The notes under the pieces are model-generated. The model was not told the origin of the DNA and did no database searches. It saw nothing but the letters and a program-made list of their open reading frames with translations. Positions 2,709 to 40,442 of a stretch of DNA of 40,442 bases are shown here, one piece after another. Both the position numbers and the translations under genes were made by a program. The stretch is from a virus. The stretch covers positions 1 to 40,442 of IMG/VR virus record IMGVR_UViG_3300031949_000092. One strand, written 5' to 3'. The number at the start of each line of letters is the position of its first letter. Positions within the stretch are counted from its first letter, which is position 1.

Positions 2709-2723
2709 ATTTAATTATAACAC
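2709..2723 (-). promoter_or_regulatory. Extended -10 promoter fused to the ATG (GTGTTATAATTAAAT-ATG)
   Basis: TGnTATAAT with 5 nt to the A of the ATG at 2708. Identical copies are at 9272 and 13966. Confidence 0.65.
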
Positions 2724-7067: not shown

Positions 7068-7083
7068 TAACTAATTATAGCAC
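7068..7083 (-). promoter_or_regulatory. Extended -10 promoter fused to the ATG (GTGCTATAATTAGTTA-ATG)
   Basis: TGnTATAAT with 6 nt to the ATG at 7067. An identical copy is at 10049. Confidence 0.65.
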
Positions 7084-9271: not shown

Positions 9272-9286
9272 ATTTAATTATAACAC
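9272..9286 (-). promoter_or_regulatory. Extended -10 promoter fused to the ATG (GTGTTATAATTAAAT-ATG)
   Basis: Identical to the copies at 2709 and 13966. The upstream TAG stop overlaps its first G. Confidence 0.65.
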
Positions 9287-9819: not shown

Positions 9820-9835
9820 AATTTAATTATATCAC
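9820..9835 (-). promoter_or_regulatory. Extended -10 promoter fused to the ATG (GTGATATAATTAAATT-ATG)
   Basis: TGnTATAAT with 6 nt to the ATG at 9819. The TAA stop of the upstream gene lies inside the TATAAT hexamer. Confidence 0.65.
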
Positions 9836-10048: not shown

Positions 10049-10064
10049 TAACTAATTATAGCAC
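10049..10064 (-). promoter_or_regulatory. Extended -10 promoter fused to the ATG (GTGCTATAATTAGTTA-ATG)
   Basis: Identical to the copy at 7068. Confidence 0.65.
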
Positions 10065-13965: not shown

Positions 13966-13980
13966 ATTTAATTATAACAC
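13966..13980 (-). promoter_or_regulatory. Extended -10 promoter fused to the ATG (GTGTTATAATTAAAT-ATG)
   Basis: Identical to the copies at 2709 and 9272. Confidence 0.65.
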
Positions 13981-14144: not shown

Positions 14145-14159
14145 GATTTATTATAACAC
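14145..14159 (-). promoter_or_regulatory. Extended -10 promoter fused to the ATG (GTGTTATAATAAATC-ATG)
   Basis: TGnTATAAT with 5 nt to the ATG at 14144. Confidence 0.6.
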
Positions 14160-16134: not shown

Positions 16135-16150
16135 TATTTAATTATAGCAC
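16135..16150 (-). promoter_or_regulatory. Extended -10 promoter fused to the ATG (GTGCTATAATTAAATA-ATG)
   Basis: TGnTATAAT with 6 nt to the portal ATG. Confidence 0.65.
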
Positions 16151-16442: not shown

Positions 16443-16458
16443 TAATTAATTGTATCAC
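16443..16458 (-). promoter_or_regulatory. Extended -10 promoter fused to the ATG (GTGATACAATTAATTA-ATG)
   Basis: TGnTACAAT with 6 nt to the ATG. The TG is supplied by the TGA stop of TerL. Confidence 0.6.
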
Positions 16459-18880: not shown

Positions 18881-19220
18881 TCCTTGCTCCTTCCGCCTTT
18901 GCTTTTATCAATCTGCCAACTTCCCTTCAAGTCCTTCCAAACATATTTTGCGTTCTTTACTTGTTCTTGAGTAACTTCTAAACCGCTTGTTGAATATTCG
19001 TCTAGATACTCCCGACTAAGCACTCCCCCCCTAAATGGCTGTAAAGCGTCTTTCCTGAATTCACGCCTTCCTTCTTTAATGCTTTCGCTAGTCCATTCTC
19101 TTTCATAGTGCGGTTTGTCTTTGTCTTGTCTGCAAACTTTACAGAAAGTTACTCCATAAACTTCGTCAATTTCTGCCAGCCGTTTATTACAATTACCACA
19201 GAGTATTTTTTTTTAATCAT
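18853..19220 (-). CDS. Zinc-ribbon protein whose ATG is separated from the body by a -1 frame change in an A9 run
   Basis: ATG-ATT-A9 at 19220-19206 (ATGA overlap with the GroEL stop). The 113-codon open frame (CGNC...CKVC) is reached only by a -1 slip or if the run is really A10. Confidence 0.5.
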
Positions 19221-20803
19221 TTCTTTTCCTCCTCAATCTCTGCGACAATGCCTTCCGCAGTAGTGAGAGATATTGCAACTGCAACTGCATTATTTAATGC
19301 TTCAACTAAAACTTGAGTGGGATCAATTATGCCTTCTTTCATCATATTGACAACATCTTCAGTGACAACATTAACTCCATATCCAAATCCTTTTTCTTTT
19401 ACTCTCAACGTCATTTCTCCACTATTTAGCCCTGCATTTCCAAGCAATTTATCAAATGGCTTTCTAATCGCATTTTTTAATATTCGATAAGCATAGTCTT
19501 CATCTTCAGTTTCGGGTTTTAAAACATCATCTATAAACAAAAGAACTGTTTCTCCCCCAGGAACAACCCCATCCTTGATTGATGAGCGAGTTGCAAGGAT
19601 TGCATCTTCACAACGCTCCCTGCGTTCTTCCGCTATAGATTCAACATGTCCCCCCACTCTAATAACATAAACTCCCCCGGTCAGCTTAGCCAGCCTTTCT
19701 CTTAATTTCTCTCTATCAAATTCTTTCTCTTCCTCTTTTAACTGGTTCTTTATTGAGTTAATCCGTTCCTTGATTTTCTTGGGGTCGCCCTTGCCTCCCC
19801 GGATAGTCGTCGCCTCTTTTGTAGAGACTACCTTGTCGGCGTGTCCTAAATCTTTTAATTCAATCTCTTTTAGTTTCATTTTGGCATCGCTTGAGATAAA
19901 CTTCGCACCCACAACCGTCGCTATATCCTGAAGTATGTTTTTGGTGTTGAAGCCCGGTGCCTTAATTGCCAGCATATTCGCCTTGCCGGTTACTTTATTA
20001 TTTATCAAGCTTACCAGTACCATGCCCTCTATGTCTTCCGCTATAACTACAAGGTTTTTCTCCTTTGCCTCGTTCATTTTTATAAACAAGGGCTGAATTT
20101 CAAAAGCGTCATCTAGCTTGTAATCGGTGACCAATATGTTTGCGTTACTTACCGAAGCGGTCATGTTGTCGGGATTTGTCACAAAGTATTCGGTCTTGTA
20201 GCCTGAGTCTATCTGCAAACCCTCCTGATGGTCTATAAAAGTATCCGGTCCCGTTATTTCCTCTGCCGTTATCACCGCGTCAACTCCTGCTTTCTCGTAA
20301 GTTTCGCCTATCAGTTTGCCCATTTGCTCATCCTCCGAACTTATCGTAGCCACTTGGATTTTCTGCTCTTTAGTCTTAACCGGAGTAGAGAGTTCCTTAA
20401 TCCTTTCAACAAGCAAGTCCCGCCCTTTCTCTAAACCGCTTCTCAAACTCATTGGATTTATACCAGCATTCGTAACTTTTAAAGCTTCTTCCATTATTGA
20501 ATAAGCTAGTAAAATCGTTAATGTAGTACCATCTCCCACACTTTCCACAGTTTCTCTCGCGGATTGCTTAATTATCTCCGCTCCTGCACTCTCAAATGGG
20601 TTTTTAGGATTAATGGTCTCACTAACTTTCAGACCATCATGAAGTAATTTTGTCCTGTGTGGTTGCCAAGTAACAATATTTCTGCCACGAATACCTAATG
20701 TAGTTGATACGGCTCGATTTACTCTACTCGCACCTTTTAGTAGTTTTTCTCTAGCTTTTATCCCGTGTATTTCTTTGCTATATTTCATGGATTTATTTCC
20801 CAT
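19217..20803 (-). CDS. groEL: GroEL-type chaperonin (Cpn60)
   Basis: Motifs VGDGTTLTILLA, AIKAPGF, LTGGVYVIRVGG and DGVVPGGE are present. It ends EIEEEKK with no GGM tail. The ATG at 20788 gives a canonical N-terminal length. Confidence 0.9.
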   Translation of the reverse strand: MGNKSMKYSKEIHGIKAREKLLKGASRVNRAVSTTLGIRGRNIVTWQPHRTKLLHDGLKVSETINPKNPFESAGAEIIKQSARETVESVGDGTTLTILLAYSIMEEALKVTNAGINPMSLRSGLEKGRDLLVERIKELSTPVKTKEQKIQVATISSEDEQMGKLIGETYEKAGVDAVITAEEITGPDTFIDHQEGLQIDSGYKTEYFVTNPDNMTASVSNANILVTDYKLDDAFEIQPLFIKMNEAKEKNLVVIAEDIEGMVLVSLINNKVTGKANMLAIKAPGFNTKNILQDIATVVGAKFISSDAKMKLKEIELKDLGHADKVVSTKEATTIRGGKGDPKKIKERINSIKNQLKEEEKEFDREKLRERLAKLTGGVYVIRVGGHVESIAEERRERCEDAILATRSSIKDGVVPGGETVLLFIDDVLKPETEDEDYAYRILKNAIRKPFDKLLGNAGLNSGEMTLRVKEKGFGYGVNVVTEDVVNMMKEGIIDPTQVLVEALNNAVAVAISLTTAEGIVAEIEEEKK

Positions 20804-21101: not shown

Positions 21102-21116
21102 AACCCTATTATATCA
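21102..21116 (-). promoter_or_regulatory. Extended -10 promoter fused to the groES ATG (TGATATAATAGGGTT-ATG)
   Basis: TGnTATAAT with 6 nt to the ATG. The upstream TAA stop lies inside the hexamer. Confidence 0.6.
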
Positions 21117-28969: not shown

Positions 28970-30411
28970 AGAAAGGGAGTTTCCGTGCCTGAATCCTCTG
29001 ACATGTCTGACGATACTGACGCTGAATCCGCCTCGACCCTCACCTCTTCATCTTCAAACCCATATATAAGTTTTAGCTTTGATATTAACTCACTATCATA
29101 AAAAACACCTCTTTTAGTCCCATCTGAACTTCTTTTAGAAGTAAAGCCTATTGCTTTAGTAATTCTACCTATGCTCCTACCGTCTAAGTGCAAATTTTCT
29201 CTCTTACCCTCGTTATACATAGAACTAATAGTTTCAAATGGCAACATAGAAGTACCTTGTTCGACCATTGCTTCTGAATTTAATATTATTTGTAGTATCT
29301 GTGCTTCAAAAGAATCCATTGCTGTTTCTTTCTTTTGTCCTTTAATTAACTTTTTAAGTTCTCTATAATTTTTTTCTACTGAAGGAAATAGAGTTTTAAT
29401 CATTCTTAAATATCCTATTAACATATCTTCTAATCTACCAGTTTCTTCTTTTGGAGTTTTATTAAATTTTTGATTTATATGGGCAAACCTCATGCCTAAT
29501 AACTTTTCCTTTAAATATAATGCTTCTTCTGCTGTTGGCTCAGATAAAAATAATTTAGTAGATGGCTTCATTTCTAAGGTTATCGTTCTTGAGGAACCTA
29601 CATCATCTATCATTCTATTGCTTGTAACTACTGTCGGGCCAAAGACTTCAAATCTAACTGTATCTCTAAATGCGCCCTTTTCAGGAAACAATACTCTTGA
29701 GGCTACAACTCCTTTTTCAGCTCTTCCATAAACCAAATCCTCTGATTGTGCATTAGCCAGCTTTTTGGCAAAGTTCTTTACATCAAATAATAAAGTAGCT
29801 TTATGGTCTCTTCCCCATCTTATTAAATTAGCTTCTCTTAGCGTCTCAGTCATAACTCCACGTCTAGCTATATATATTAAACCCTTAGCGGTTCTCGTTT
29901 TTCCTCTTTCTCGGTCTGCAAAGAAGTAAATAATTGGAGAGAATATAAATTTCTCTATTAAATAAGTATGGAAATCCCATAAAGCTAATAAATCATAATA
30001 TAAGTTATCCGGTAATTCAGATATATCTTTATGATATTTAACCAATTCTTTATATATTTTAAGGCAGTAAGAACAACCTACCCTCGCACGGGTTTTATCG
30101 TCAGTATCGTCAGTAACGTCGTGAAGTTTAGCCTCAGCAACAATTTTTTCATACTCCGGTACTAAATAGTCCAAATCCTCTTTATAAGGAGGGTTATAAA
30201 CTTTATCCTCTATAACTACTTTTTCTAAAACTTTACCGTCAATCATCAAAAACTTGAGTTCTTCACTATTTCTTACTAAATCACACAAACCATCAAAGTT
30301 TGCAGTAAAATAAACTTTTTCTTTCGGTTTACTCTTAGACTTCTTTTTAATACTTTCAGCAGTCATTTCACCAACAGACATTTCTTTTTCTAGTTTTTCT
30401 AGTTTATCCAT
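28966..30411 (-). CDS. Putative replication initiator / P-loop NTPase (primase-helicase-associated type)
   Basis: 481 aa, the largest early gene. It has a degenerate Walker-A-like DRERGKTRTAKG and an acidic C-terminal tail. The assignment is tentative. Confidence 0.35.
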   Translation of the reverse strand: MDKLEKLEKEMSVGEMTAESIKKKSKSKPKEKVYFTANFDGLCDLVRNSEELKFLMIDGKVLEKVVIEDKVYNPPYKEDLDYLVPEYEKIVAEAKLHDVTDDTDDKTRARVGCSYCLKIYKELVKYHKDISELPDNLYYDLLALWDFHTYLIEKFIFSPIIYFFADRERGKTRTAKGLIYIARRGVMTETLREANLIRWGRDHKATLLFDVKNFAKKLANAQSEDLVYGRAEKGVVASRVLFPEKGAFRDTVRFEVFGPTVVTSNRMIDDVGSSRTITLEMKPSTKLFLSEPTAEEALYLKEKLLGMRFAHINQKFNKTPKEETGRLEDMLIGYLRMIKTLFPSVEKNYRELKKLIKGQKKETAMDSFEAQILQIILNSEAMVEQGTSMLPFETISSMYNEGKRENLHLDGRSIGRITKAIGFTSKRSSDGTKRGVFYDSELISKLKLIYGFEDEEVRVEADSASVSSDMSEDSGTETPFL

Positions 30412-30601
30412 TTAAGTATTTATTCGCTCTTTTGAGATATTTAAGTGCAATCTTGTGATACTTCTTATGTTTAAGTCTGCATATTTGCCAGTCTATATTT
30501 TCGTGCTTAAATTCCCAAGAATTAATTAACCAATCAATAGACTTATCAAGGTTAAATTTAAACCTCTCAAAATTAATATAAAAATCACTAGGGATTGCCA
30601 T
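30404..30601 (-). CDS. Hypothetical protein
   Basis: 65-aa ORF. Confidence 0.5.
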   Translation of the reverse strand: MAIPSDFYINFERFKFNLDKSIDWLINSWEFKHENIDWQICRLKHKKYHKIALKYLKRANKYLNG

Positions 30602-30821
30602 CTTTATATTGTTTTCTAAGTTCTTTTATCTCTTGAAGAATATCCTCGACATCTAAAGCCATGGCAAGATAAATTTTAGTTAGCTGAAGTTCGTTCTCCG
30701 GAGTTCCTACCGGGAATCTCTCTTGTGCCTCGCGAATAGTCCAAGTAATCTGGTCAAGACGCTTATATTGACTGCGGAGTCTGTAAAGAAGTTCAATGTC
30801 TACTTTCTCATTCTTACTCAT
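30588..30821 (-). CDS. First early gene, hypothetical
   Basis: 77-aa ORF immediately downstream of the early promoter. Confidence 0.6.
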   Translation of the reverse strand: MSKNEKVDIELLYRLRSQYKRLDQITWTIREAQERFPVGTPENELQLTKIYLAMALDVEDILQEIKELRKQYKDGNP

Positions 30822-30832
30822 ATCTAACCTTT

Positions 30833-30861
30833 AATTTATAGACTTCTTTAAGCCCAGTCAA
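30833..30861 (-). promoter_or_regulatory. Early promoter TTGACT-N17-TAAATT (or N15-TATAAA)
   Basis: -35 at 30861-30856 and -10 at 30838-30833, with the ATG 11 nt downstream. Confidence 0.55.
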
Positions 30862-30988
30862 CTAGCAACTTCTATATCATATCCTTGACAAACTTTCCTA
30901 TATAAGTAAAACTTAAAAAAGCCAATCTTGTAGAAATATTTACTAATGATTATTAGTTAAGTAAAGTACAACTCGAAAGGAAATAGAA

Positions 30989-31023
30989 ACACCCCGGGAT
31001 AACGACTGCGGGGTGTTTTTTTT
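30989..31023. terminator. Strong hairpin terminator at the late/early boundary (A-run / 8-bp GC stem / T-run)
   Basis: ACACCCCG-(12-nt loop)-CGGGGTGT, flanked by T8 on the plus strand. On the minus strand it is followed by TTCTATTTCC. Confidence 0.8.
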
Positions 31024-31032
31024 GTTAAAGGA

Positions 31033-31257
31033 TTAACCTCTAAGTTTGCGGAGGTAATCCAAAACAGTATTTATAAGGTAAAGGAATATTCCTCCTACTA
31101 CCTCTCGGCTTGGTGCAAAGTCGCTCCATTCAAATCCGTCGCCTTGTATGTTTGCCTGCACAAAAATAAGGTAAAGCACTCCAAGCGGTGCTAAAAAGAT
31201 TAAAGCATTATTTAACCATTTTGACCAATCCTTTTTGTTTTCTAATAAAACCTGCAT
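31033..31257 (-). CDS. Holin candidate (two TM segments)
   Basis: 74 aa with hydrophobic segments ALIFLAPLGVLYLIFV and VVGGIFLYLINTVL and a basic C-terminus. GAGGTGA lies 6 nt upstream of the ATG. It is the last gene before the terminator. Confidence 0.6.
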   Translation of the reverse strand: MQVLLENKKDWSKWLNNALIFLAPLGVLYLIFVQANIQGDGFEWSDFAPSREVVGGIFLYLINTVLDYLRKLRG

Positions 31258-31273
31258 TGTGAATCACCTCGAT

Positions 31274-31471
31274 TCAAAGTCTTCCGACTCTCAGAATCAA
31301 CGCCAAAAGCAAACTTGTAAAACTTATCAATTCTAGTATCCATGCGGTCCTCTCCATTTTATTTTTTGGTATTTTTGTTAAATGATTTGTAAACTTGGCA
31401 ATACTAAGCCTAACTTGCCTTACCAACTTCGCAAGCTCGTCCTCTACCGGATATTTACTTTGGTTTCCCAA
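31274..31471 (-). CDS. Small tail-anchored membrane protein (lysis accessory candidate; TTG start uncertain)
   Basis: C-terminal TM segment WILELISFTSLLLALIL. It sits between the endolysin and the holin. Confidence 0.4.
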   Translation of the reverse strand: MGNQSKYPVEDELAKLVRQVRLSIAKFTNHLTKIPKNKMERTAWILELISFTSLLLALILRVGRL

Positions 31472-31479
31472 ATTAAAGC

Positions 31480-32250
31480 CTATTTCTCAAACGTCTTATA
31501 AAGTCTGAAAAATAGCTTGGATAGGGAGTTGGTTTGCGGAGGTTCGTTGGAGATTATAGATTTTTTTAATGTCTTGATTTCTTCTTCAAGTTTTCCTCTA
31601 CTCTCCTCAAGCGTTGAAACGGACTTCTCAAGATCCGTAGTTTTATCAGTAAGTGTTTTAACGCTTTCAGCAAGGTTTTTTACATCACGGGCTTGGTCAA
31701 ACAAAGTTGACTTGACTGCTCCAAATTCCATTGTTCCGAAGTTAATTCCATCTCGTTCTCCTATTTCTAACTTAGTTTTATCCGTAATCACGTTGTCGTC
31801 AATTATAACACTTTCCTCTAATTTAGGCTCAAGCCAACCAACTATATTTGTATAATCATGGGATTGTAAATGAGCCTGCCTACCATTCCAATTCTGGTCA
31901 AATCCTGTAAAAGCATTTACATCTCCTGATATGAAAATATCGATATGTCCAAATCCACCACCTACGCTTGTATTCCAAATTGGTACGTCACCTTTCTTGG
32001 GTGTGTTTGTTAAAGTGTTTGGTATTTTATTGAAAATTGTTGATAACGGGTTAGGAAAGTTCGCCCAATAGCCGTAGGCCGAATTAGAGCCGCTAGGGGG
32101 AGCCGTAATACCAAATACCCCATCTATATATAGTTTGACTATGCTAAGGCATTCTCCGCTGTAACTGGAGTCCGTGGGATAGCCTTTTGTCTTGCCCTGA
32201 TAGTCATTGATAAATCTGTCTACTTTTTCTGATAGTTCTTCTCTTGTCAT
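31480..32250 (-). CDS. CHAP-domain endolysin with a C-terminal coiled coil
   Basis: The Cys motif (SGECLSIVKLY), His motif (GFGHIDIFISG) and FDQNWNG fit the CHAP Cys-His-Asn arrangement. Confidence 0.8.
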   Translation of the reverse strand: MTREELSEKVDRFINDYQGKTKGYPTDSSYSGECLSIVKLYIDGVFGITAPPSGSNSAYGYWANFPNPLSTIFNKIPNTLTNTPKKGDVPIWNTSVGGGFGHIDIFISGDVNAFTGFDQNWNGRQAHLQSHDYTNIVGWLEPKLEESVIIDDNVITDKTKLEIGERDGINFGTMEFGAVKSTLFDQARDVKNLAESVKTLTDKTTDLEKSVSTLEESRGKLEEEIKTLKKSIISNEPPQTNSLSKLFFRLYKTFEK

Positions 32251-32567
32251 GTAAGTAAATCAATAATAGTCTTTAACTGCGAGAGCAGGAATCCTATTCC
32301 AATTGCACCTGCCAATAAGAATTTCCAAAGCCTTTTAGTCTCCTTCATCCAAACAAACATTTGGTCGTGTTCTTTAAGTCTTCTGTCCGGGTCGGAAACT
32401 GTTACCAGCTTTTCGTAGCCATTCATCCGCAGTTCAAGTGCCGTCATTCTGGTTCCAAGGCCGTCTTTTAGGTCTTTAATGTCTAAAGAAAGACGGTCAA
32501 CCTTGGCATCCACACGAATTAACACGTCGTGGTCTACCTGTCGTCTTTGGTCTATTGTCATTGACAT
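32247..32567 (-). CDS. Coiled-coil protein with a C-terminal TM anchor
   Basis: 106 aa with the TM segment FLLAGAIGIGFLLSQL, adjacent to the endolysin. Confidence 0.55.
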   Translation of the reverse strand: MSMTIDQRRQVDHDVLIRVDAKVDRLSLDIKDLKDGLGTRMTALELRMNGYEKLVTVSDPDRRLKEHDQMFVWMKETKRLWKFLLAGAIGIGFLLSQLKTIIDLLT

Positions 32568-32572
32568 ATCAT

Positions 32573-33232
32573 TTAAAGTATTGCGAGAAAGCCTGATTGT
32601 TCTTTATATAAAGTTAAAATTTCTGCATCTGTTAAATATCTGTTAAACACACCCAAATCATCAATTATTGCCGAAGAAGGATTGCTGCCTGCTCCATCAG
32701 CACCTATACCGAAAGTGTTTAACCCTCCTCCTGCCGTTCCTAAAGCACCAGAGGCTACTTGAGTACCGTTTATATATAAATAAACATTAGCTCCATTTCT
32801 CATCATTACCATGTGATAAAAATTAGCTGTTCCAAGAGTGATATTGTAAGTCGGTCCGCCTCCGCCTTGGTCAACAACCAAACGCCGTGTTCCAGCGTTG
32901 TAGCTGTAATATAATTGACAATATGAAGATGTGGGAAAATTGATATTAAAGAATGTATAATTTCCCGCACCTATCTCGGTTTGTAATTTAACCCAAAAAG
33001 GTACAGCCCAATTAGTCGCATTTGTAATTCCTATGGCGTCTGTTCTGGATAAATACTTATTCGGATTTGACGCACCAAAGTCAGCGCCATTAGTGTATTT
33101 AGCAGGATTAAAAGCAACAGTATTATTATTGGTTAAATTACTAGAACCCTTGTTATCCGAAACATCTTCAAGTCTATAATAATGAAGAAGATTTGCATCA
33201 CTAAATAATGATATTGTTGCAAGTTCTGCCAT
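32573..33232 (-). CDS. LamG/concanavalin-A-like lectin domain protein (receptor-binding candidate)
   Basis: The end LYINGTQVASG...IDDLGVFNRYLTDAEILTLY is the typical Laminin_G_3 ending. Confidence 0.75.
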   Translation of the reverse strand: MAELATISLFSDANLLHYYRLEDVSDNKGSSNLTNNNTVAFNPAKYTNGADFGASNPNKYLSRTDAIGITNATNWAVPFWVKLQTEIGAGNYTFFNINFPTSSYCQLYYSYNAGTRRLVVDQGGGGPTYNITLGTANFYHMVMMRNGANVYLYINGTQVASGALGTAGGGLNTFGIGADGAGSNPSSAIIDDLGVFNRYLTDAEILTLYKEQSGFLAIL

Positions 33233-33233
33233 T

Positions 33234-34175
33234 TTATGCCTCCGCTATTGCGACTACGATATTCCAAGTAGGAGTTGCCGAATTATAAATACAACCTATA
33301 TAGTGAGTTTTATTGGCTACTGTAGTTGTGGGAGCCGTGCATCCAATGGCTGTAAATCCAGTCCAAGTTAAACCTTTAGCCACTCCTGCGTCTTTAAGTC
33401 TAATTATTAGTTTTTGCCCATTAACAGGCGTTCCTGTAACTGTAAATTCCGTAGCATTAGCAATAGCAGTTAATTGATATTGGTCGGTAACATCAACATC
33501 TATTACTGCGGTTGCGTCATCCGTAGTCGTAACCACTCTCGGAGATATTCTTTTATTGGTCATCGTAACCGTTCCACTTGCAACATGAGCCTTAACCGAT
33601 TGCTGAGAGGGTACTTTGGTAGCTGAGTCTGTCGCCATATCATCCTCATCTAACATCCAAGCCGCACCTGATAATGAGGTCATGTCGTGAAGCCCGTCGG
33701 GAGTTACTGCAAGCGTTGCTGATGTCCCCGTTGTTGTCTCCGCCGTAGTTGCTAATTCAACCTTGCCTGCCGTAGTTGAATCCGCAGCCGTCACTAAATC
33801 TGTTACATCACTGTCAACTGATACAACGCCCGTATCTGCCCTAATAACCCCTGTAAGCCCCACAGGTAAGGTCACAGTCCCTGTAAAAGTAGGGGAGGCA
33901 AGAGGAGCTGCTCCCAAAGAGGTTAAGGCTGCTGCTGCACTTGTAGCGCCTGTTCCTCCTTGTGCCACCGATAAGGCGGTAGTAAGGCCAGACAACGATG
34001 TAATATCAGAGTTGGCACCCGAAGCCGCAAGACCGCTGATTAAATTAGACCTTGTAATATTTTTGGAAGTTCCATCGGCTGAGTCTGATGTGTCACTTAC
34101 ATCAACAATATAAAGTTTATCTCCAGAAGCCACCGAAGATAAACCCGTCAGAGAAGTTAGTTTGCTATCAGCCAT
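33234..34175 (-). CDS. Tail fibre protein
   Basis: The N-terminus has SKLTSL..L...DKLYIVD and LSVAQGGTGATSAAAALTSLGAAPLASPTFTGTVT, a widespread phage fibre motif. Confidence 0.8.
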   Translation of the reverse strand: MADSKLTSLTGLSSVASGDKLYIVDVSDTSDSADGTSKNITRSNLISGLAASGANSDITSLSGLTTALSVAQGGTGATSAAAALTSLGAAPLASPTFTGTVTLPVGLTGVIRADTGVVSVDSDVTDLVTAADSTTAGKVELATTAETTTGTSATLAVTPDGLHDMTSLSGAAWMLDEDDMATDSATKVPSQQSVKAHVASGTVTMTNKRISPRVVTTTDDATAVIDVDVTDQYQLTAIANATEFTVTGTPVNGQKLIIRLKDAGVAKGLTWTGFTAIGCTAPTTTVANKTHYIGCIYNSATPTWNIVVAIAEA

Positions 34176-34830
34176 AAATAAATTCCTCCTTTCTCATTCT
34201 CGGATTCATATAACTTTTAGTTTTTTTATGGCAGTCCACGCAAAGTGTCCTACCATTGTCAATAGCAAGTCGTAGTTCTGGAAATAAAGCAAAGGGTTTA
34301 ACGTGGTCAGCGTGCAAATCGGTATTACCCCTTACTCCACATTTAGTACAACTATAATTATCTCTAGTAAAAACGGCTATCCTCCACAAGAGATATTCCG
34401 TAGAAGTTCTAATTTTATGATTTAACGGAGTAATTCCACCCTTCCAAGATGGATTTTCTTTTCCACGATAATGTGGAAGTCTTCTTGCACTCCCTAATTT
34501 TTTATGTGTATTACTCATTTTTTTTCTAGTTTGTTTAGAAGATTTTTTACCATACATCGGATTTTTGTTACCCATTTTTGTTTCACTTAAATGTTTTTTA
34601 GTAATTTCGGTGTGTTTAAAACCTAATCCATTTTTGTTCCCTATAAGCTTCTTCCTTATTTTTATACGAGTTTCTGGTTTCATTGGATGTTCTTTGCCCT
34701 TCAGTGAGATAGAGTAACATTTATGACTACAAAATTTACTGTCTTTAAAGACAGGAGAAACTAAATATTTTTCTGAACAAGTTAAGCAAATTTTTTCAAC
34801 TTTAGCATAGTTCCATGGTCTATTTATCAT
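34168..34830 (-). CDS. HNH homing endonuclease with NUMOD-like repeats
   Basis: HADHVKPF...NGRTLCVDCHKKT is the HNH core. It also has repeated GKxHP/GNKNP..K motifs and the N-terminal CxxC..CSHKCY finger shared with 7809-8369. Confidence 0.8.
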   Translation of the reverse strand: MINRPWNYAKVEKICLTCSEKYLVSPVFKDSKFCSHKCYSISLKGKEHPMKPETRIKIRKKLIGNKNGLGFKHTEITKKHLSETKMGNKNPMYGKKSSKQTRKKMSNTHKKLGSARRLPHYRGKENPSWKGGITPLNHKIRTSTEYLLWRIAVFTRDNYSCTKCGVRGNTDLHADHVKPFALFPELRLAIDNGRTLCVDCHKKTKSYMNPRMRKEEFIYG

Positions 34831-34845
34831 ATATATATTTTATCA
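34831..34845 (-). promoter_or_regulatory. Extended -10 promoter fused to the HNH ATG (TGATAAAATATATAT-ATG)
   Basis: TGnTAAAAT with 6 nt to the ATG. The TG comes from the upstream TGA stop. Confidence 0.55.
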
Positions 34846-35052
34846 TGAAGAATAATTTGTCGAATTTACAGTAGATTTGGAGAAATTTACATTATTCACT
34901 TCACCACTCTCAATTATTAGTTTAGAAACCCCGTCTTCAAAGAGTAAGAAGCTACTATTATCTTCTAACAGTAAATAAAACTCATCTCCGCCAACCGATT
35001 TTTGATACCCCGTAGAGTTGGGGTTAGATTTAGAAAAGTTTGTAGAAACCAT
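34843..35052 (-). CDS. Hypothetical Ser/Asn-rich protein
   Basis: 69-aa ORF with a leaderless-type promoter at its ATG. Confidence 0.55.
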   Translation of the reverse strand: MVSTNFSKSNPNSTGYQKSVGGDEFYLLLEDNSSFLLFEDGVSKLIIESGEVNNVNFSKSTVNSTNYSS

Positions 35053-35067
35053 TAACTAATTATACAC
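35053..35067 (-). promoter_or_regulatory. -10 promoter fused to the ATG (GTGTATAATTAGTTA-ATG)
   Basis: TATAAT with an adjacent TG, 6 nt to the ATG at 35052. Confidence 0.6.
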
Positions 35068-35075
35068 GATGAAGA

Positions 35076-35423
35076 TTAACTGATTCCGAGGGATGCTCTA
35101 GCTATCTTATTCTCTGTATCCAAAGTATTTTTAAGAGCTTTTAAAGAAATTTCTGCTTCAAACGACCGCGCTGGTGGCGTCCCAGGAACTGCTGGTGCCT
35201 CACCAAGGGTGGTGGCAGCAATACTTTCTGGAGTTTGGCCTGCCATTCCACCAATTTGAGACACTTCGGTTGTAATATTAGGAGGCAAATTAGACGTTCC
35301 GGGAGCCGCCGGGCTCGTTTGCTCCAAAGCAGGTATGGACATTCCGCGCTTTTTTAAGGCCGCCGCCAAAGCTGAACCCCCACCTAATGCGTTTCCGAAG
35401 CTTCCTGAACTTTGATTCTCCAT
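35076..35423 (-). CDS. Hypothetical Gly/Ala/Pro-rich protein
   Basis: 115-aa ORF preceded by a structured leader. Confidence 0.6.
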   Translation of the reverse strand: MENQSSGSFGNALGGGSALAAALKKRGMSIPALEQTSPAAPGTSNLPPNITTEVSQIGGMAGQTPESIAATTLGEAPAVPGTPPARSFEAEISLKALKNTLDTENKIARASLGIS

Positions 35424-35478
35424 AAAAATACTCCGTCTTTTGAACGGAGTTATTTCTCCTTAATAAATTATAACACAC
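35424..35478 (-). promoter_or_regulatory. Extended -10 promoter, AAGGAG at the 5' end, terminator-like hairpin, U-run, then AUG
   Basis: Minus strand reads GTGTGTTATAAT-TTATT-AAGGAGAAATAA-CTCCGT-TCAAAAG-ACGGAG-TATTTTT-ATG. The architecture matches 39429-39481. Confidence 0.6.
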
Positions 35479-35482
35479 GAAG

Positions 35483-35653
35483 TTACTTCTTCTTGGCTAA
35501 ACTCTTGTCTTGGTATAATTCTTTTCTTACAAGGTGTTTAACAAGTTCGCTTTGCGACATTCCATTCTTTTTACAATAAGATTGCATATCCTCAAATACA
35601 TCCTGTGGAAAAGAAAAAGAAGTTATAACGTTTCTATCAATTGCTTCTGACAT
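35483..35653 (-). CDS. Ribbon-helix-helix (Arc/Mnt/CopG-type) regulator
   Basis: I chose the ATG at 35653 (MSEAIDRNVITSFSFPQDVFEDMQSYCKKNGMSQSELVKHLV...), which gives a beta-strand then two-helix RHH layout. A promoter abuts this ATG. Confidence 0.65.
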   Translation of the reverse strand: MSEAIDRNVITSFSFPQDVFEDMQSYCKKNGMSQSELVKHLVRKELYQDKSLAKKK

Positions 35654-35689
35654 TTGATTTATTATAGTTATTATAATATAATAATGCAA
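35649..35689. promoter_or_regulatory. Overlapping divergent promoters around a perfect 17-bp palindrome (operator candidate)
   Basis: Minus strand: TTGCAT (35689-35684)-N17-TATAAT (35666-35661), 7 nt to the ATG at 35653. Plus strand: TATAAT (35672-35677), 6 nt to the ATG at 35684. Palindrome TTATTATAATATAATAA at 35668-35684. Confidence 0.6.
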
Positions 35690-35998
35690 GTGAGAAAAGT
35701 AATAATTAAATTACCGACAGAAAGAGTTAATAAATTTAGACTTCAATTAACCGGAACCAAAGGAAGACGGTTCTTGCGTGCATCGTCGATTCTAAACGCT
35801 CTGTCCTACTACAAATTCAGAGAAAAAACGGCAATTACAGTAAAAGAGTACATAGATGGCTCTTATGAAAATATTAATCAAACACTAGCCTCAACAGATA
35901 AGAATTATTTGTTATTTGCTGCGGCTTGTTTTTTAGAGGATTTTTTGTCTGATGATGTAATGAATAATGTAATAAAAAGGTATGCACCAAAACCATGA
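35684..35998 (+). CDS. Hypothetical protein, first gene of the only plus-strand operon
   Basis: I chose the ATG at 35684 (the track ORF starts at a TTG at 35654). It has an ATGA overlap with the next gene. Confidence 0.6.
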   Translation: MQVRKVIIKLPTERVNKFRLQLTGTKGRRFLRASSILNALSYYKFREKTAITVKEYIDGSYENINQTLASTDKNYLLFAAACFLEDFLSDDVMNNVIKRYAPKP

Positions 35999-36270
35999 AA
36001 ACACTTAAATTCTACAAAGACATGGATAAAATGCGCGAATACAGGAAACGCAGTAAAAAGAACAACTATAAACGGGGTAATTTCATTGAAGTTCCATACA
36101 TAAGATATACCGGCGACGAGGACTGGGAACTCCTTTTCTCCGACAAAAGCGACAGGCAAATAGCGATGGAACTCAAAAGGAGCGTCGAGTCAATTCAACT
36201 GAGAAGATGGAAGATTCTATCGGGTAAAGTTAATAGCTCTTATTCATTGAAAGGAAGTGAAGCGATATGA
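35995..36270 (+). CDS. Myb/SANT-like or sigma-r4-like HTH protein
   Basis: GDEDWELLFSDKSDRQIAMELKRSVESIQLRRWKI resembles a Myb-type W..(E/D)..L...IA..L.R....(I/C)..RW repeat. It has ATGA overlaps on both sides. Confidence 0.5.
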   Translation: MKTLKFYKDMDKMREYRKRSKKNNYKRGNFIEVPYIRYTGDEDWELLFSDKSDRQIAMELKRSVESIQLRRWKILSGKVNSSYSLKGSEAI

Positions 36271-36461
36271 TTTGGTTTATTATAATTTTACTATTACTAA
36301 TAGGATGGTTATTTGGTCCGAATATTGACCAATCTGAAAGAAATCGCAGAAACAAATTGGACGAAAGGATAAAAAAAAGATTCACGGATAAAGATGCACT
36401 AAAAAGTTATGAAGAAATGCAAAAGGAAATTAATGAGCAATCATCCTGGCCGTTTTTGTAA
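36267..36461 (+). CDS. Small N-terminally anchored membrane protein
   Basis: TM segment IWFIIILLLLIGWLF followed by a charged tail. Its 3' end overlaps the convergent virion gene by 32 nt. Confidence 0.55.
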   Translation: MIWFIIILLLLIGWLFGPNIDQSERNRRNKLDERIKKRFTDKDALKSYEEMQKEINEQSSWPFL

Positions 36462-38535
36462 GTATTGAAGGTCGCATTGCTTGTGCTGCTGCTTCAAGAG
36501 GAGGACCAAAAACAGTTCCTGCAATACCTCCGGCAATAGCTCCTGGTACACCCCCCAGAATAGACCCGCCAATAAGACCACTTATTCCACCTCCTATTTT
36601 ACCAACTCTACCAGCCATAAATGCCGAATTAGCAGCTTCTTCTGTTAAATCAATCATCTGATTAATTCTTACAAATGGTAATTGTAAATGTCTAATATCG
36701 CCGAGAGTTTTAGCCTGTAGATACTCATTTGCCAATTTTGGCGAAACACTCTCTAATTCCGAAAGTATCTCTGGATTTTTGAAACCCAAAAGAATATCTT
36801 GCTCACCAGCCATTATTTCTAAAGACGACATTATTTCATCGGCAGCCGCTAAATAAGCATTACCTATACCAATATTTTTTACATTACCCGTTAAATAAGT
36901 ATTAGTCTTTAGATATTGATATCCAAGTTTCTCTAATCTTTTTGCGGTATCATAGGCATCAAGCGGATTTACTTTCATAACTTCTTTACCAGTTTTTTCC
37001 GCTCCTGCGATATTTCTTAATATTCTGCTCTTTTCGATAGGTGTAAGTTCAATAACTTCTTTAAGCATATTTTCAGCCGCCCCCGCTGCTTTTCCTACCT
37101 CAACCTCTCCCTGCAAGCTTCCAATTGCATTTCTTGTGACCTTAGTTAAAACTCCGGTATCTCCTGTAACCTTGGATGCAATATCACTCATTTCATCTAA
37201 ACTTCCCGATACACCATAATCGAGCATCTTAGCTGAAGTTTCTATCGGTCTTAAATTTCTAGCTCTTTTAGTGGGAACTATAAATGCTGAAGAAAAAGTT
37301 TTCGCTGCGATTTCGCCTCTGGTAGGTAAGATTCCACCAACCCTACTAACCGGAGCAACTTCTTCGACCTCACCCAACGCTTTCTTGGCTATTCCTATCT
37401 CCGTAATATCCTCTGCCTTTGCGGCCATCTTGGCAACGCCCGCCTCTTCACTTGTAACGCCCGCGAGTTTACCGGCCTTGAGCTTCTTCAATCCTGAAAG
37501 AAAGGGAATTACATCCAATATCGTGTTAACAGGATGCTCATACGCTTGCTCTAACGGGTGGGTAATGAGGTTTTTATACTCTTCCACTATACTTCCGAGC
37601 ATCGCTTGTCCTGTTTCCGTTCTAACGAAGTCAACTCCCGGTCCGAAAATCGAAGGTCCGATTGTAGATATTTCTTCTCCTACTTGTTGGAAAGCACTGG
37701 GTAGATTAACAACTCCCTCGACTAATCCTTGAAGGTCGTTTAGTACGTTTTCACCGAAGCCTGCGAGACTTTTTTTTTCCGCAGTTGCTTCTTCAACGGC
37801 TCGAAGTTCCTCCGGTGGGGCCGTTTCAAAACTAGGAATAGCCTCTTCCGCGACTTGCTTTTCAACGCCATTCCCTTCATCCAAATTTAATCCTGAGAGT
37901 AATTTGTCTGAAAACTCTTTAGCTTGTTCTGGTGTCTGTCCCGCCTCAATAAGACGTGTTTCTAGTTGCTTTGCTAAATTGTTCAATTTTATCTGTGCTT
38001 CAGCATCTGTGTCTCCAATATCGGGCAGGCTCTCTGCAAGCGCCGCCCTTTCCTCATCCGACAGCGCCCTCCCCGTTTGGTTTGCTATCGCTCCAGCAAG
38101 GGAAAATGAAACATTTTCTCTTAAACCCTCAAAAGCACTGATGTCAGGCTCGATAGACCTCGCAATTCCGCCGATTATCCCAGGCTTTTCCGCCTCGCCC
38201 GCCGGCACTCTTAACCTTCCCCTGAAAGGTTTGGATATATTTTTTCTTGTCTCCTCAAGGAGTTTTATGTCAGAACCCAAAGTTCTCGCTAAACTGACTT
38301 TTTCCTGCTGGGCTTCGGTACCGATACCCGACTCGATGTCTTTCAGTTTAATCTCGGCTTCTTTTCTGGCTAATACTTTTTCCGGAGCCTGGCCCGTTTG
38401 GTATTCCGCAACTAATTTAGGACTTATCGCCCCCAACTCTCCGGCCTGCACGCCCGCCTTTACCTCACCTGTTTTGGTGTTGTAAATATCAACGGTTCCG
38501 TCTGGATTGTATTTTGAAATAGGCATAGTTACCAA
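36430..38535 (-). CDS. Internal virion/ejection protein candidate (large, helical, Gly-zipper C-terminus)
   Basis: 701 aa rich in Ala, Glu, Gly and Lys. The C-terminus has IGGGISGLIGGSILGGVPGAIAGGIAG, a membrane-insertion-like segment. Confidence 0.55.
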   Translation of the reverse strand: MVTMPISKYNPDGTVDIYNTKTGEVKAGVQAGELGAISPKLVAEYQTGQAPEKVLARKEAEIKLKDIESGIGTEAQQEKVSLARTLGSDIKLLEETRKNISKPFRGRLRVPAGEAEKPGIIGGIARSIEPDISAFEGLRENVSFSLAGAIANQTGRALSDEERAALAESLPDIGDTDAEAQIKLNNLAKQLETRLIEAGQTPEQAKEFSDKLLSGLNLDEGNGVEKQVAEEAIPSFETAPPEELRAVEEATAEKKSLAGFGENVLNDLQGLVEGVVNLPSAFQQVGEEISTIGPSIFGPGVDFVRTETGQAMLGSIVEEYKNLITHPLEQAYEHPVNTILDVIPFLSGLKKLKAGKLAGVTSEEAGVAKMAAKAEDITEIGIAKKALGEVEEVAPVSRVGGILPTRGEIAAKTFSSAFIVPTKRARNLRPIETSAKMLDYGVSGSLDEMSDIASKVTGDTGVLTKVTRNAIGSLQGEVEVGKAAGAAENMLKEVIELTPIEKSRILRNIAGAEKTGKEVMKVNPLDAYDTAKRLEKLGYQYLKTNTYLTGNVKNIGIGNAYLAAADEIMSSLEIMAGEQDILLGFKNPEILSELESVSPKLANEYLQAKTLGDIRHLQLPFVRINQMIDLTEEAANSAFMAGRVGKIGGGISGLIGGSILGGVPGAIAGGIAGTVFGPPLEAAAQAMRPSILTKTARMIAH

Positions 38536-39428
38536 CCATCGTCTCCTAAAGTTCCCAACTTCCCTTTCTTTTCGGTTCTTAATAAATTCCCTGCAAAGTC
38601 AAAAATACCAATTCTATCTCCTAAATCTACAAAATCTATATTGCTAGCGGTTTGCTCAAGCTGTGCCAGTTGCGTGGCTCTGTTTAACTGCGCTACATCT
38701 AATGTGGTTTGTCTTGATAAATTTGCCAATTCTCTATCTAAATCCGAACTAATTTGCTGTTTGAACAAGTCAAACTCCTGCCCGATGTTCTGACCCAACA
38801 TTTGTGCTTCCAAACCTAGTCCAGTAAAAGCCGCTTGTGTTCTTGAACCGAATTCACTTAAAAGGTTCTGAAGACCCGCTCCGCTTGCTTCCAGTCCTCT
38901 TGTTGCCGACTCTATCGCGGGTTGCAGTCCCTTAATCTCTGCCGCTGTCCTTCCTGCAAGCTGTCCTGCCGTTACTCCTTGTCCCGATAACGCCTGCTGT
39001 ACGGCTTGTGGCAAGTCGCGGATAGTACCCGATATTCCCCTTGCTGCCGTACCTGCCGCCCCGAAAGTCTGAAAAGCCTCCGGAATGCCCATGGCTTGTC
39101 TAACGGCCTCCAGTTCTTCAGGTACTTTCTGGAGCCTTCCGGTAAATTCTCCTAGCCTTCCTCTTTCTTCCTCTTGAAAGGTTGCCGCTTTTTGTTCCTC
39201 CGGTGAAGTTCCCGGTTGGAAAAGTCTGGCTATGTTTTGCCCCTCCGTGCTTCCCGTAAAGCTCGTACCAGGTACGTCTTGAAGCTGAAAGGTTTGACCT
39301 GCCGTTAATGGAGCGTTTGTGGGCAAGCCCGTAAATTGACCATAGACTGAAGTCGTGCCGCCGTACTGCTTCATTAAGTCATCCAATGTCTTACCGGCTA
39401 AATTTTCGGGAACTTTATAATAGGCCAT
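38529..39428 (-). CDS. Internal virion protein candidate
   Basis: 299 aa rich in Gly, Gln, Ala and Thr with low complexity. It overlaps the downstream gene by 7 nt. Confidence 0.55.
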   Translation of the reverse strand: MAYYKVPENLAGKTLDDLMKQYGGTTSVYGQFTGLPTNAPLTAGQTFQLQDVPGTSFTGSTEGQNIARLFQPGTSPEEQKAATFQEEERGRLGEFTGRLQKVPEELEAVRQAMGIPEAFQTFGAAGTAARGISGTIRDLPQAVQQALSGQGVTAGQLAGRTAAEIKGLQPAIESATRGLEASGAGLQNLLSEFGSRTQAAFTGLGLEAQMLGQNIGQEFDLFKQQISSDLDRELANLSRQTTLDVAQLNRATQLAQLEQTASNIDFVDLGDRIGIFDFAGNLLRTEKKGKLGTLGDDGW

Positions 39429-39481
39429 TAAAAAATAAAACCCCAGCGGTTTGCTGGAGTAGTTTCTCCTTATTTATTATA
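39429..39481 (-). promoter_or_regulatory. TATAAT, AAGGAG at the 5' end, terminator-like hairpin, U-run, then AUG (second copy of this architecture)
   Basis: Minus strand reads TATAAT-AAAT-AAGGAGAAACTA-CTCCAGC-AAACC-GCTGGGG-TTTTATTTTTTA-ATG. Confidence 0.55.
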
Positions 39482-39486
39482 CTACA

Positions 39487-39663
39487 TCACCTTTTAGGTT
39501 TGTGTTCAGGGTACTTTTTATCTTGAATATATTTTTTGATATTCTGTGCGGTAGCTTTTACGTCATCAACCATTTTGGTATTTGCTTCCACTGTGATACC
39601 CTTCTTTTCATCCTCGGTGTCATACTGAATAGCCGCGCCTTCATAAATTCTTATTCTTTTCAT
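39487..39663 (-). CDS. 58-aa hypothetical protein (start revised)
   Basis: The ATG at 39663 forms an ATGA overlap with the upstream stop and is preceded by AAGGGGGG. The track ORF start at 39705 lies inside the upstream gene. Confidence 0.55.
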   Translation of the reverse strand: MKRIRIYEGAAIQYDTEDEKKGITVEANTKMVDDVKATAQNIKKYIQDKKYPEHKPKR

Positions 39664-40187
39664 GCATCCCCCCTTGATATAATTGCTCTGGATTGAACAA
39701 TCCAAACAACAGTCTCTGCTCCACCTGAGCTATTTTTTACTGCGGTTTTATAAACTGTATTATTTCCGTCTGTTGCAAAATGAATTTCACTACCGCTACT
39801 TACATAAAATCTTTTACCTCCAACTTTATATTGAGGCATTGCCATAGGGCCATAAACCTCAAAATCACCGGTTGTCGTCCTCCAAGGAATTTGATTATTT
39901 TGCGGGTCAATTGCCGATAGGCTGTCCGCATCAAAAAAAGCAATCATAAAGGGACAAAGACCTATTCTTATCAAAGGGTCAATCGTGGAGGTGCTTTTTG
40001 TAGTTAAAGTCGTTGTAACACCATCATTAAAACTAAAAGTTCCATTGGTTGTATTTGAATTTTTAAGAAAATCCTGTGGAAGCTGTCTTGGCTTAACCGA
40101 GGTGGGTAAAATATCCCGCCTGCCGACTCTCGCTTTAAACTGAGTAGCCGAAACTCCTGCCGGCGGGATGTCATTAAAACCGTTCAT
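39660..40187 (-). CDS. Virion structural protein, hypothetical
   Basis: 175-aa ORF with an ATGA overlap with the wrap-around gene. Confidence 0.65.
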   Translation of the reverse strand: MNGFNDIPPAGVSATQFKARVGRRDILPTSVKPRQLPQDFLKNSNTTNGTFSFNDGVTTTLTTKSTSTIDPLIRIGLCPFMIAFFDADSLSAIDPQNNQIPWRTTTGDFEVYGPMAMPQYKVGGKRFYVSSGSEIHFATDGNNTVYKTAVKNSSGGAETVVWIVQSRAIISRGDA

Positions 40188-40442
40188 TCCTCTTCCCCTT
40201 CATCCGTTAATTCCTCATAAATGAGATTGACTCCTGTTATTCGAGGAAACGTAACTGCTGAGCTTAAAAAATCGAAACCGAATTCAATCTCCTTGATTGG
40301 CATATTTATGTAGAGATTTGCCTCTGTTTCACCCACCGTCGTTACTGCCGTTCCCGAAGTAAAAGTTCCACTGCGATTTATGTCATAGACAGGCGTTACG
40401 GAATCCCCTGAAACTAACGGTTCAAAAGTTATTTCTAATTTA
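40184..40442 (-). CDS. C-terminal end of the 618-aa wrap-around structural protein (40316-40442 duplicates 1-127)
   Basis: The frame checked open from 40315 down to the TGA at 40186-40184. The protein ends ...LIYEELTDEGEEE. Confidence 0.85.
   Translation of the reverse strand, partial: KLEITFEPLVSGDSVTPVYDINRSGTFTSGTAVTTVGETEANLYINMPIKEIEFGFDFLSSAVTFPRITGVNLIYEELTDEGEEE
40316..40442. repeat. Second copy of the 127-bp terminal overlap
   Basis: Identical to bases 1-127. Confidence 0.95.

Follow-up and report, generated by a model that had tools for sequence, protein, structure and literature searches.

A candidate divergent promoter switch within 36 bp beside a ribbon-helix-helix gene of an uncultured phage

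Introduction

Two genes of opposite orientation, one of which encodes a presumed ribbon-helix-helix (RHH) repressor, start only 30 bp apart in the phage genome analyzed here. The question raised by this locus is whether so short a stretch of DNA could hold two promoters together with an operator through which the RHH protein would control both. The locus lies in a viral sequence of 40,442 nucleotides (IMG/VR record IMGVR_UViG_3300031949_000092), which was analyzed over its full length and is referred to below as the window. It was singled out in a first-pass annotation of the window, made by a model from the sequence and its open reading frames alone.

Results

The window represents a phage genome of ∼40.3 kb that was assembled as a circle and has a 127-nt exact terminal repeat, and the gene calls of the source assembly were available from the matching ENA contig k141_3196476 of ERZ27256953. 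The genes identified include those for the major head protein, the large and small terminase subunits, an SU10-type adaptor, and a tail fibre, as well as an endolysin, two HNH endonucleases, and a GroEL-like chaperonin. Nearly all genes are carried by the minus strand, and the sole plus-strand cluster is a three-gene island at 35684-36461. No integrase or lysogeny genes and no ParA-like or Rep-like protein were found in the ORFs scanned, PADLOC gave no defence or toxin-antitoxin match, and searches for Rfam families and tRNAs returned none. The phage represents an uncultured lineage without a close relative among GenBank phages or in IMG/VR. Neither megablast of 30000-40442 nor tblastn of the 104-aa protein of the first island gene matched any GenBank phage, peptide-pattern scans of IMG/VR with the 104-aa, RHH, and 701-aa proteins revealed no close relative, and a genome contig scan with alignment A1 gave no match. 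For the GroEL-like protein and the large terminase subunit, the only matches are distant (<40% identity) and come from phages that infect a wide variety of hosts.

The gene on the minus-strand side of the spacer encodes a protein of 56 aa, and gene calling in the source assembly selects the same ATG codons for this gene and for the first island gene, giving 56 aa and 104 aa. The first-pass annotation had described the 56-aa product as an RHH-type protein, and this assignment is upheld with marginal support. Pfam family PF10723 (RepB-RCR_reg) is matched at 24.0 bits, marginally above the cut-off of 21, and two further families remain below their cut-offs (RHH_5, 23 vs 26 bits; RHH_1, 13.9 vs 20.5 bits). 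PHROG 582, an Arc-like repressor family, is matched with E=1.2e-4, NCBIfam returns RHH matches that are all weak and also a weak RepA regulatory match, and the best sequence match in the PDB is the RHH domain of NikR (E=0.07). A single-sequence AF2 model of the monomer, of low confidence (pLDDT 67.6), begins with an extended N-terminal segment, which is followed by helices at 17-29 and 34-47; the beta-strand of RHH proteins forms only in the dimer. The Foldseek list obtained with this model is dominated by RHH proteins (NikR, ParG, Arc, and CopG), every E-value being >0.5. On the basis of the PF10723 match, the Arc-like PHROG match, and the RHH-dominated Foldseek list, the protein is marginally RHH-like. 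A word-indexed search of 5.8 billion proteins for homologues returned the query alone.

The RHH gene is followed by a hairpin of -15.3 kcal/mol (z=-2.2) and a T-run, the likely terminator listed in Table 1, and a short monocistronic RHH transcript is therefore likely. The next gene encodes a low-complexity protein of 115 aa that is also conserved in relatives lacking the RHH gene. In view of the hairpin and T-run, this 115-aa neighbour, and the empty PADLOC result, no toxin gene co-transcribed with the RHH gene was found, and no rep gene adjoins the RHH gene, which is followed by the predicted terminator instead. On the upstream side, no minus-strand terminator is predicted between the gene for a 698-aa protein and the RHH gene.

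The island on the plus strand comprises genes for proteins of 104, 91, and 64 aa, the last of which has a hydrophobic N-terminal segment and is a predicted membrane protein. The AF2 model of the 104-aa protein (pLDDT 85) has a beta-beta-beta-alpha-beta-beta-alpha-alpha layout, for which no fold match was found in the PDB or BFVD and no family in Pfam or PHROG. The idea that this protein is a second RHH protein, analogous to Mnt, was rejected on account of the confident alpha/beta model and the absence of any RHH match in Pfam or PHROG; carrying neither RHH nor Ant domains, the 104-aa protein does not qualify as an antirepressor or second RHH partner. Its homologues are P0002, P0003, and proteins of L019 and L020. 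GTG 35690 aligns with Met1 of P0002 and of the L020 protein (two of three homologues), and P0003 aligns with ATG 35684. The plus-strand gene may start at either of these codons, and both of the corresponding -10 boxes may be used. No terminator is predicted for the island operon, whose third gene overlaps the convergent 698-aa gene by 32 nt, so that unrepressed island transcription would collide with late transcription, and such a collision is a plausible reason for repressing the island.

Table 1. Features of the divergent locus and its surroundings, in coordinates of the window; promoter, operator, and terminator assignments are predictions.
Feature	Position	Strand	Remarks
Likely terminator of the RHH gene: hairpin then AUUUUU, 32 nt past the stop codon	35430..35450	-	8 pairs, tail ATTTTTATGG
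Gene for 56-aa RHH protein, presumed repressor, ATG 35653	35483..35653	-	profile and fold matches
Extended two-fold symmetry about 35671.5	35640..35703	.	27-nt arms, 20/27 complementary, inverted repeat I1
Shared control region, both putative promoters on opposite strands	35654..35689	.	read from sequence and promoter scan
-35-like TTGATT of mirror-image plus promoter; abuts RHH ATG	35654..35659	+	promoter scan
Repeat H1, TTATTATA, direct copy; covers -10 of RHH promoter	35659..35666	+	
-10 TATAAT of RHH promoter; 17 nt from -35, 7 nt before ATG 35653	35661..35666	-	
Repeat H2, TTATTATA, left arm of palindrome; in spacer of RHH promoter	35668..35675	+	inverted repeat I15
-10 TATAAT of plus promoter proposed in first-pass annotation; 6 nt before ATG 35684	35672..35677	+	
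-10 TATAAT of mirror-image plus promoter; 7 nt before GTG 35690, 1 nt before ATG 35684	35677..35682	+	
Repeat H3, TATAATAA (plus-strand letters), inverted copy, right arm of palindrome; covers plus -10	35677..35684	-	
-35-like TTGCAT of RHH promoter; contains plus-strand ATG	35684..35689	-	3/6 vs TTGACA, TTG kept
First island gene, 104 aa (102 aa from GTG 35690), function not assigned, not RHH	35684..35998	+	
Second island gene, 91 aa	35995..36270	+	family searches without significant match
Third island gene, 64 aa, hydrophobic N-terminal segment	36267..36461	+	overlaps 3' end of convergent 698-aa gene by 32 nt

For the minus strand, the first-pass annotation proposed a promoter TTGCAT-N17-TATAAT-N7-ATG, and precisely these elements are present, with TTGCAT at 35689..35684, TATAAT at 35666..35661, and the RHH ATG at 35653; its statement that the -35-like hexamer covers the ATG of the plus-strand gene is likewise borne out. 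For the plus strand it relied on the TATAAT at 35672-35677, and here too the 6-nt distance to ATG 35684 is as described and the position expected for a -35 hexamer at 17-nt spacing (35649-35654) does contain the RHH ATG. This plus promoter is accordingly retained as to its -10 box and its spacing to the ATG, but it lacks a TGn as well as a usable -35: the hexamer found at 17 nt is poor (GACATT), and CTGACA occurs only at 19-nt spacing. A mirror-image arrangement, TTGATT-N17-TATAAT(35677-35682)-N7-GTG(35690), fits the consensus better. In a sigma-70 scan, the consensus of which may not be that of the host, TTGATT-17-TATAAT scores 10/12, joint best on either strand in 30000-40442, and the two best plus-strand sigma-70 matches of 30000-40442 both fall inside this region. 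The plus promoter is most likely TTGATT-N17-TATAAT(35677-35682) with a predicted start near GTG 35690; the overlapping TATAAT at 35672-35677, with a predicted start at ATG 35684, may serve in addition or in its place.

The cassettes on the two strands mirror one another, each consisting of a -35-like hexamer, N17, a -10 box, N7, and a start codon, which is ATG on the minus strand and GTG on the plus strand. By consensus sequence, divergent overlapping promoter cores are found within 35654-35689, and the proposal that two promoter-like cassettes interdigitate on a single 36-bp stretch is supported. Such matches are not enriched, with 27 sigma-70-like matches in the scan vs 23 expected and 20 sites genome-wide with a -35 at the level of TTGCAT vs 18.4 expected. 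The spacer is 93% A+T and contains four perfect TATAAT hexamers within 22 bp.

The first-pass annotation also held that both mRNAs would be leaderless. This claim is well supported, more so than any other part of its interpretation, and the predicted transcripts fit a genome-wide habit in the placement of -10 boxes relative to start codons. The RHH gene reads TATAAT-7 nt-ATG and the island TATAAT-6 nt-ATG or TATAAT-7 nt-GTG, leaving no room for a Shine-Dalgarno sequence at either start codon. In eleven other genes the ATG is preceded, at a distance of 5-6 nt, by TATAAT or TACAAT, and the 6 nt between the TATAAT at 35672-35677 and ATG 35684 agree with the spacing in these other leaderless promoters of the phage. 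TGn precedes the hexamer in ten of these genes, and the eleventh (35052) reads GTG-TATAAT-6 nt-ATG, the GTG directly abutting the hexamer at 35059-35064. Ten of the 14 TGnTA[TC]AAT sites are located 5-6 nt before a gene ATG, most of them in the structural-gene region, and GTGnTATAATTA occurs 11 times, vs 1.06 expected, always on the minus strand. A Shine-Dalgarno-like motif, even loosely defined, is found for only 22 of 55 genes. As judged from these arrangements, a -10 box 5-7 nt before the start codon appears to be a normal expression mode in this lineage. The -10 consensus of the phage itself continues as TATAAT-TA, not TATAAT-AA. The divergent pair departs from this class in that TGn is absent and -35-like hexamers are present, which points to a second class of promoter.

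The perfect 17-bp palindrome reported at 35668-35684 is confirmed in its letters; it reads TTATTATAATATAATAA, that is, TTATTATA-A-TATAATAA, with 8-bp arms and one central base. Its description as an ideal operator is, in contrast, statistically weak. The comparison with shuffled AT-matched sequence that the first-pass annotation had recommended was carried out, and the palindrome alone is not significant: it arises in 3.4-3.7% of composition-matched shuffles of the 30-36-nt AT-rich stretch and in 8.5-9.2% of randomisations in which both -35 and both -10 hexamers are fixed. Palindromes are more frequent once the promoters are fixed because opposed TATAAT boxes seed inverted repeats. Over the whole window, 2 perfect palindromes have arms of 8 or more and a loop no longer than 3, the expectation under a Markov-1 model being 3.3.

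A third copy of the 8-mer at 35659-35666, missed in the first-pass annotation, expands the palindrome to TTATTATA-G-TTATTATA-A-TATAATAA, an array with the arrangement → → ← in which the repeat centres are 9 and 8 bp apart and a small palindrome, TAT-T-ATA, lies within each repeat. In mono- or dinucleotide shuffles, the frequency of three non-overlapping copies is 1-4e-4, a figure to be read with the (TTA)n-like low complexity of the local sequence in mind, which dinucleotide shuffles model incompletely. Randomisations that retain the promoter hexamers yield the three-copy array in 0.3-0.4% of cases. As regards a repeated operator beyond the promoter elements, then, the palindrome is not significant, the three-copy array is significant, and the relatives lack the repeats. 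The array spans 26 bp and occurs once, no other copy with up to 3 mismatches being found in the genome, as expected for the site of a local autoregulator. Because TATAATAA is essentially a -10 box followed by AA, the three copies could also be stacked -10 elements and no operator. The exact triple-repeat pattern was encountered in IMG/VR in L006 and L007 only, unrelated and very AT-rich contigs without an RHH gene nearby, and these occurrences were judged to be due to chance.

The array is embedded in a wider dyad, not reported in the first-pass annotation, which mirrors the -35, the -10, and the start codon of both cassettes. Its arms (35640-35666 vs 35677-35703) rank at the top of the 40,362 window positions for that geometry, and the outer 19 nt taken alone pair at 12/19, a level reached at 23/40,362 positions. 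The array, the better plus promoter, and the dyad are stronger evidence than the palindrome.

Relatives (L008-L019) were reached via the neighbouring 698-aa protein, with which they share 43-61% identity. In most of them a small opposite-strand island directly follows the 698-aa gene and ends in a small hydrophobic protein; L008, L009, L018, and L019 have small ORFs with a hydrophobic N-terminus at the site of the third island gene. Most also keep a short divergent spacer, which measures 21-36 bp (L008), 24-39 bp (L018), or ∼90 bp (L014 and L017). Since the relatives keep both the island and the short spacer, the close packing of predicted divergent promoters at this site is a lineage trait. 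No RHH gene and no TTATTATA repeats were found at the syntenic site of the related phages. In L008 and L009 the slot of the RHH gene is taken by an HNH-like zinc-finger gene, and in L018 two leaderless promoters of the extended -10 type stand back to back, without a repressor gene or repeats. The RHH gene and the repeats are probably an addition found, among these relatives, only in this phage. That the relatives run the same type of island without an RHH protein counts against the interpretation of the locus as an RHH-controlled switch.

Discussion

The interpretation that we tentatively prefer, with somewhat less than even confidence, is that two mirror-image promoters share 35654-35689 and that RHH dimers bind the repeats between them, repressing the island and autoregulating the RHH gene. 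The minus promoter, with a start at ∼35653-35654, would give rise to a short leaderless and monocistronic RHH mRNA ending at the hairpin at 35450..35430. The plus promoter would drive the three-gene island (104 aa, 91 aa, and the 64-aa membrane protein) head-on into the late structural genes. Each predicted start site sits at the -35 of the other promoter, and because the core elements of both promoters occupy the same 36 bp, the geometry implies that one RNA polymerase would exclude the other. Binding of RHH dimers to the three TTATTATA repeats (→ → ←) would cover both -10 boxes and thus would shut off transcription of the island and, once more of the sites are occupied, that of the RHH gene as well. 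In its most ambitious form, which we regard as doubtful, this proposal would make the 36 bp a minimal, near-perfect two-fold-symmetric toggle composed of two -35-N17--10-N7-start cassettes, each starting at the -35 of the other and both leaderless. A single RHH protein would read the → → ← array, shutting the island first, which would free the DNA for its own promoter, and then itself. Such a toggle would reside in an undescribed lineage whose structural genes have -35-less extended -10 leaderless promoters.

The statistics of the repeats lend themselves to another explanation, namely that the promoters are real and that the palindrome and the 8-mer array are a by-product of opposed -10 boxes packed in AT-rich DNA. 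The RHH gene would then have two tandem -10s and the island two or three, and the RHH protein would recognise the wider dyad TTGATTTATTATA/TATAATAATGCAA or act at another target. An 8-bp-arm palindrome does arise in 8.5-9.2% of randomisations with the four hexamers fixed, the repeat unit equals TATAAT plus AA where four TATAAT lie within 22 bp, the wider dyad stands out more strongly in the statistics, and L018 has back-to-back divergent leaderless promoters across a 24-39-bp spacer with neither RHH gene nor repeats. We nevertheless consider this explanation, the main rival, somewhat less likely than the preferred one, inasmuch as the third in-register copy is still rare (0.3-0.4%) after conditioning on the promoters, the -10 consensus of the phage runs TATAAT-TA and not TATAAT-AA, and autoregulated RHH repressors are usually encoded right next to a repeat array, as here (PMC2724298).

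Doubt may extend to the promoters themselves, which in one direction or in both could be chance matches to the consensus, the RHH gene then being expressed mainly by read-through of upstream late transcription. The sigma-70-like matches are indeed not enriched (27 vs 23 and 20 vs 18.4 expected), for a consensus that may not be that of the host polymerase, and the lack of a predicted minus-strand terminator between the 698-aa and RHH genes would permit read-through. This possibility is nonetheless clearly improbable when it is considered that the island, as the only plus-strand cluster, needs a promoter of its own for which only 30 bp are available, that the TATAAT-to-ATG spacing is the same as at eleven other gene starts, and that nowhere else in the window are -35, -10, and start codon mirrored in this way. 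Least probable by a wide margin is a role of the RHH protein outside any promoter switch, as an antitoxin, as a partition protein of the ParG/omega type, or as a replication regulator of the CopG/RepB type, with repeats that would be centromere- or origin-like. Although the best Pfam match, PF10723, is a regulator family of rolling-circle plasmid replication, NCBIfam gives a weak RepA regulatory match, and RHH antitoxins and ParG appear in the list of fold matches, the hairpin terminator and the presence of the next gene, for 115 aa, in RHH-less relatives leave no toxin or Rep in the operon. PADLOC was empty, the ORFs scanned contain no ParA-like or Rep-like protein, and the array is just 26 bp in a single occurrence.

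By analogy, the closest precedent for the preferred switch would be the immI region of P22, with Arc (and Mnt) acting on the overlapping promoters Pant and Pmnt. Arc represses these two divergent, overlapping promoters via one operator (PMC2724298), in the gene order 16-sieA-mnt-ant-9 (PMC11016777). In both phages a small RHH protein (53 aa for Arc, 56 aa here) adjoins a short control region and the module lies within the late/structural region, here between the 698-aa virion-type gene and the tail-fibre genes; the putative operator would likewise lie inside two divergent overlapping promoters, so that one repressor could shut both. The present locus differs in having no detectable Arc/Mnt orthology beyond a remote family-level match and in lacking an antirepressor and a second RHH protein, the divergent 104-aa protein being of a different, unmatched fold. 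Both mRNAs are predicted to be leaderless here, and no integrase or lysogeny genes were found. The operator of Arc is a 21-bp element with two subsites, whereas the candidate operator here is an all-A/T three-copy array with 8-9-bp spacing.

Arrays of short sites are known from other RHH proteins: the omega heptads of inc18 plasmids, the met-boxes of MetJ, and the boxes of ParG are 7-8 bp sites bound cooperatively by successive RHH dimers. The array described here resembles them in combining direct and inverted sites, 7-9 bp apart, that overlap a promoter. It differs in having three copies, the sequence of which is indistinguishable from stacked -10 boxes, in the lack of partition or metabolic partner genes, and in being a putative binding site.

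Operators situated between divergent promoters that overlap, in combination with a regulator whose mRNA is leaderless, are found in the C proteins of restriction-modification systems and in QseC/QseM of ICEMlSymR7A, where the overlapping promoters couple two transcription units (PMC8789080, PMC5333194). C proteins and QseC are helix-turn-helix proteins with GC-containing dyad operators that control restriction enzymes or quorum-sensing antiactivators, whereas the protein at the present locus is of the RHH type and would control a phage gene island. Minimal RHH repressors of the pMV158 CopG / PF10723 type have an operator that overlaps their own promoter (PMC2724298), and PF10723 is the best-scoring family of the 56-aa protein. 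CopG, however, is co-transcribed with the rep gene that it controls; the RHH gene here is followed by a predicted terminator and no rep gene.

Control of divergent, overlapping promoters by an RHH protein is already established for P22 Arc, as are leaderless regulators encoded between overlapping promoters for the C proteins and QseC, so that current understanding would be unchanged. The switch would be of a familiar type, and what sets it apart is its extreme compactness together with two predicted leaderless transcripts. If confirmed, it would be among the most compact natural promoter-competition switches known, with 36 bp serving two leaderless genes through two promoters and one operator, would be a useful synthetic-biology part, and would provide a first handle on gene regulation in this uncultured phage lineage. 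Arguably more informative about this genome is the phage-wide class of leaderless extended -10 promoters; the same -10-to-ATG arrangement is present at the orthologous genes of the relatives L008 and L018.

Promoter-like motif throughout the phage

A promoter-like motif, (t)AGTGnTATAATTAaaT, lies 5-6 nt upstream of the ATG of at least 10 minus-strand genes in the window, the majority of them in the structural-gene region. Eleven occurrences are observed against 1.06 expected, every one on the minus strand, and the sites lack a conserved -35 element. The same arrangement is present in L008 and L018, two of the related contigs reached through the neighboring 698-aa virion-type gene. This pattern implies a predicted class of extended -10 promoters, extending across the whole phage, that would give rise to leaderless mRNAs.

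Between an extended -10 motif, GTGTTATAAT, and the ATG of the gene for the 115-aa MENQSSGSFG protein lie a hairpin and T-run, which come within ∼16 nt downstream of the motif. The orthologue in related contig L009 is preceded by the same order of promoter, hairpin, and gene, whereas the orthologues in L008 and L018 have a plain leaderless promoter. One possibility is that the hairpin acts as an attenuator; another is that it terminates the upstream gene.

Opposite-strand island and the RHH site

The small island of genes on the opposite strand, directly 3' of the ∼700 aa virion-type gene, is conserved in relatives, and its last gene always encodes a small hydrophobic or transmembrane protein and overlaps the 3' end of the ∼700 aa gene. 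Both L019, another such relative, and the contig L020 encode a homologue of the island's 104-aa protein directly upstream of a small transmembrane protein; the gene for the L020 homologue is also located just downstream of an M23-like lysin gene. These transmembrane and lysin neighbors hint that the function of the island is related to lysis or to the membrane.

The position occupied in the window by the 56-aa ribbon-helix-helix (RHH) gene is filled in L008 and L009 by a Cys-rich HNH-like or zinc-finger gene, which suggests that this site is a hot spot where genes are inserted and replaced. The window itself contains two HNH endonuclease genes. In the more distant relatives L014 and L017, the island and the gene for the small terminase subunit diverge from a spacer that is flanked by a conserved inverted repeat, ACAACGCT...AGCGTTGT; this repeat may be a different operator, for some other regulator.

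Coordinates of features in the window and related contigs
Feature	Contig	Positions (strand)
Opposite-strand island	window	35684-36461
	L008	8111-8731
	L009	8061-8219
	L018	5357-5485
	L019	2071-2530
	L020	2478-2999
(t)AGTGnTATAATTAaaT-type sites	window	2714-2723, 7074-7083, 9277-9286, 9826-9835, 10055-10064, 13971-13980, 14150-14159, 16141-16150, 16449-16458, 21108-21116, 35059-35064 (-)
GTGTTATAAT, hairpin, T-run	window	35476..35424 (-)
Promoter-hairpin-gene order	L009	8923-8990
HNH-like/zinc-finger gene in RHH position	L008	8768-9316
	L009	8319-8918
HNH endonuclease genes	window	7809-8369 and 34168-34830 (-)
Inverted repeat flanking spacer	L014	7554-7619
	L017	5521-5578
Terminal direct repeat	window	1-127 = 40316-40442
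Chaperonin gene	window	19217-20803 (-)

Genome ends and chaperonin gene

The ends of the window carry an exact direct repeat of 127 nt, and the window is thus a circular assembly of ∼40,315 bp. At the left end, a long ORF on the minus strand runs off the window and presumably carries on over the circular junction.

This 40-kb phage also encodes a GroEL/Cpn60-type chaperonin of full length (Pfam E=3.9e-48). Its identity to the GroEL proteins of phages or bacteria in the phage collection reaches only ∼38%.
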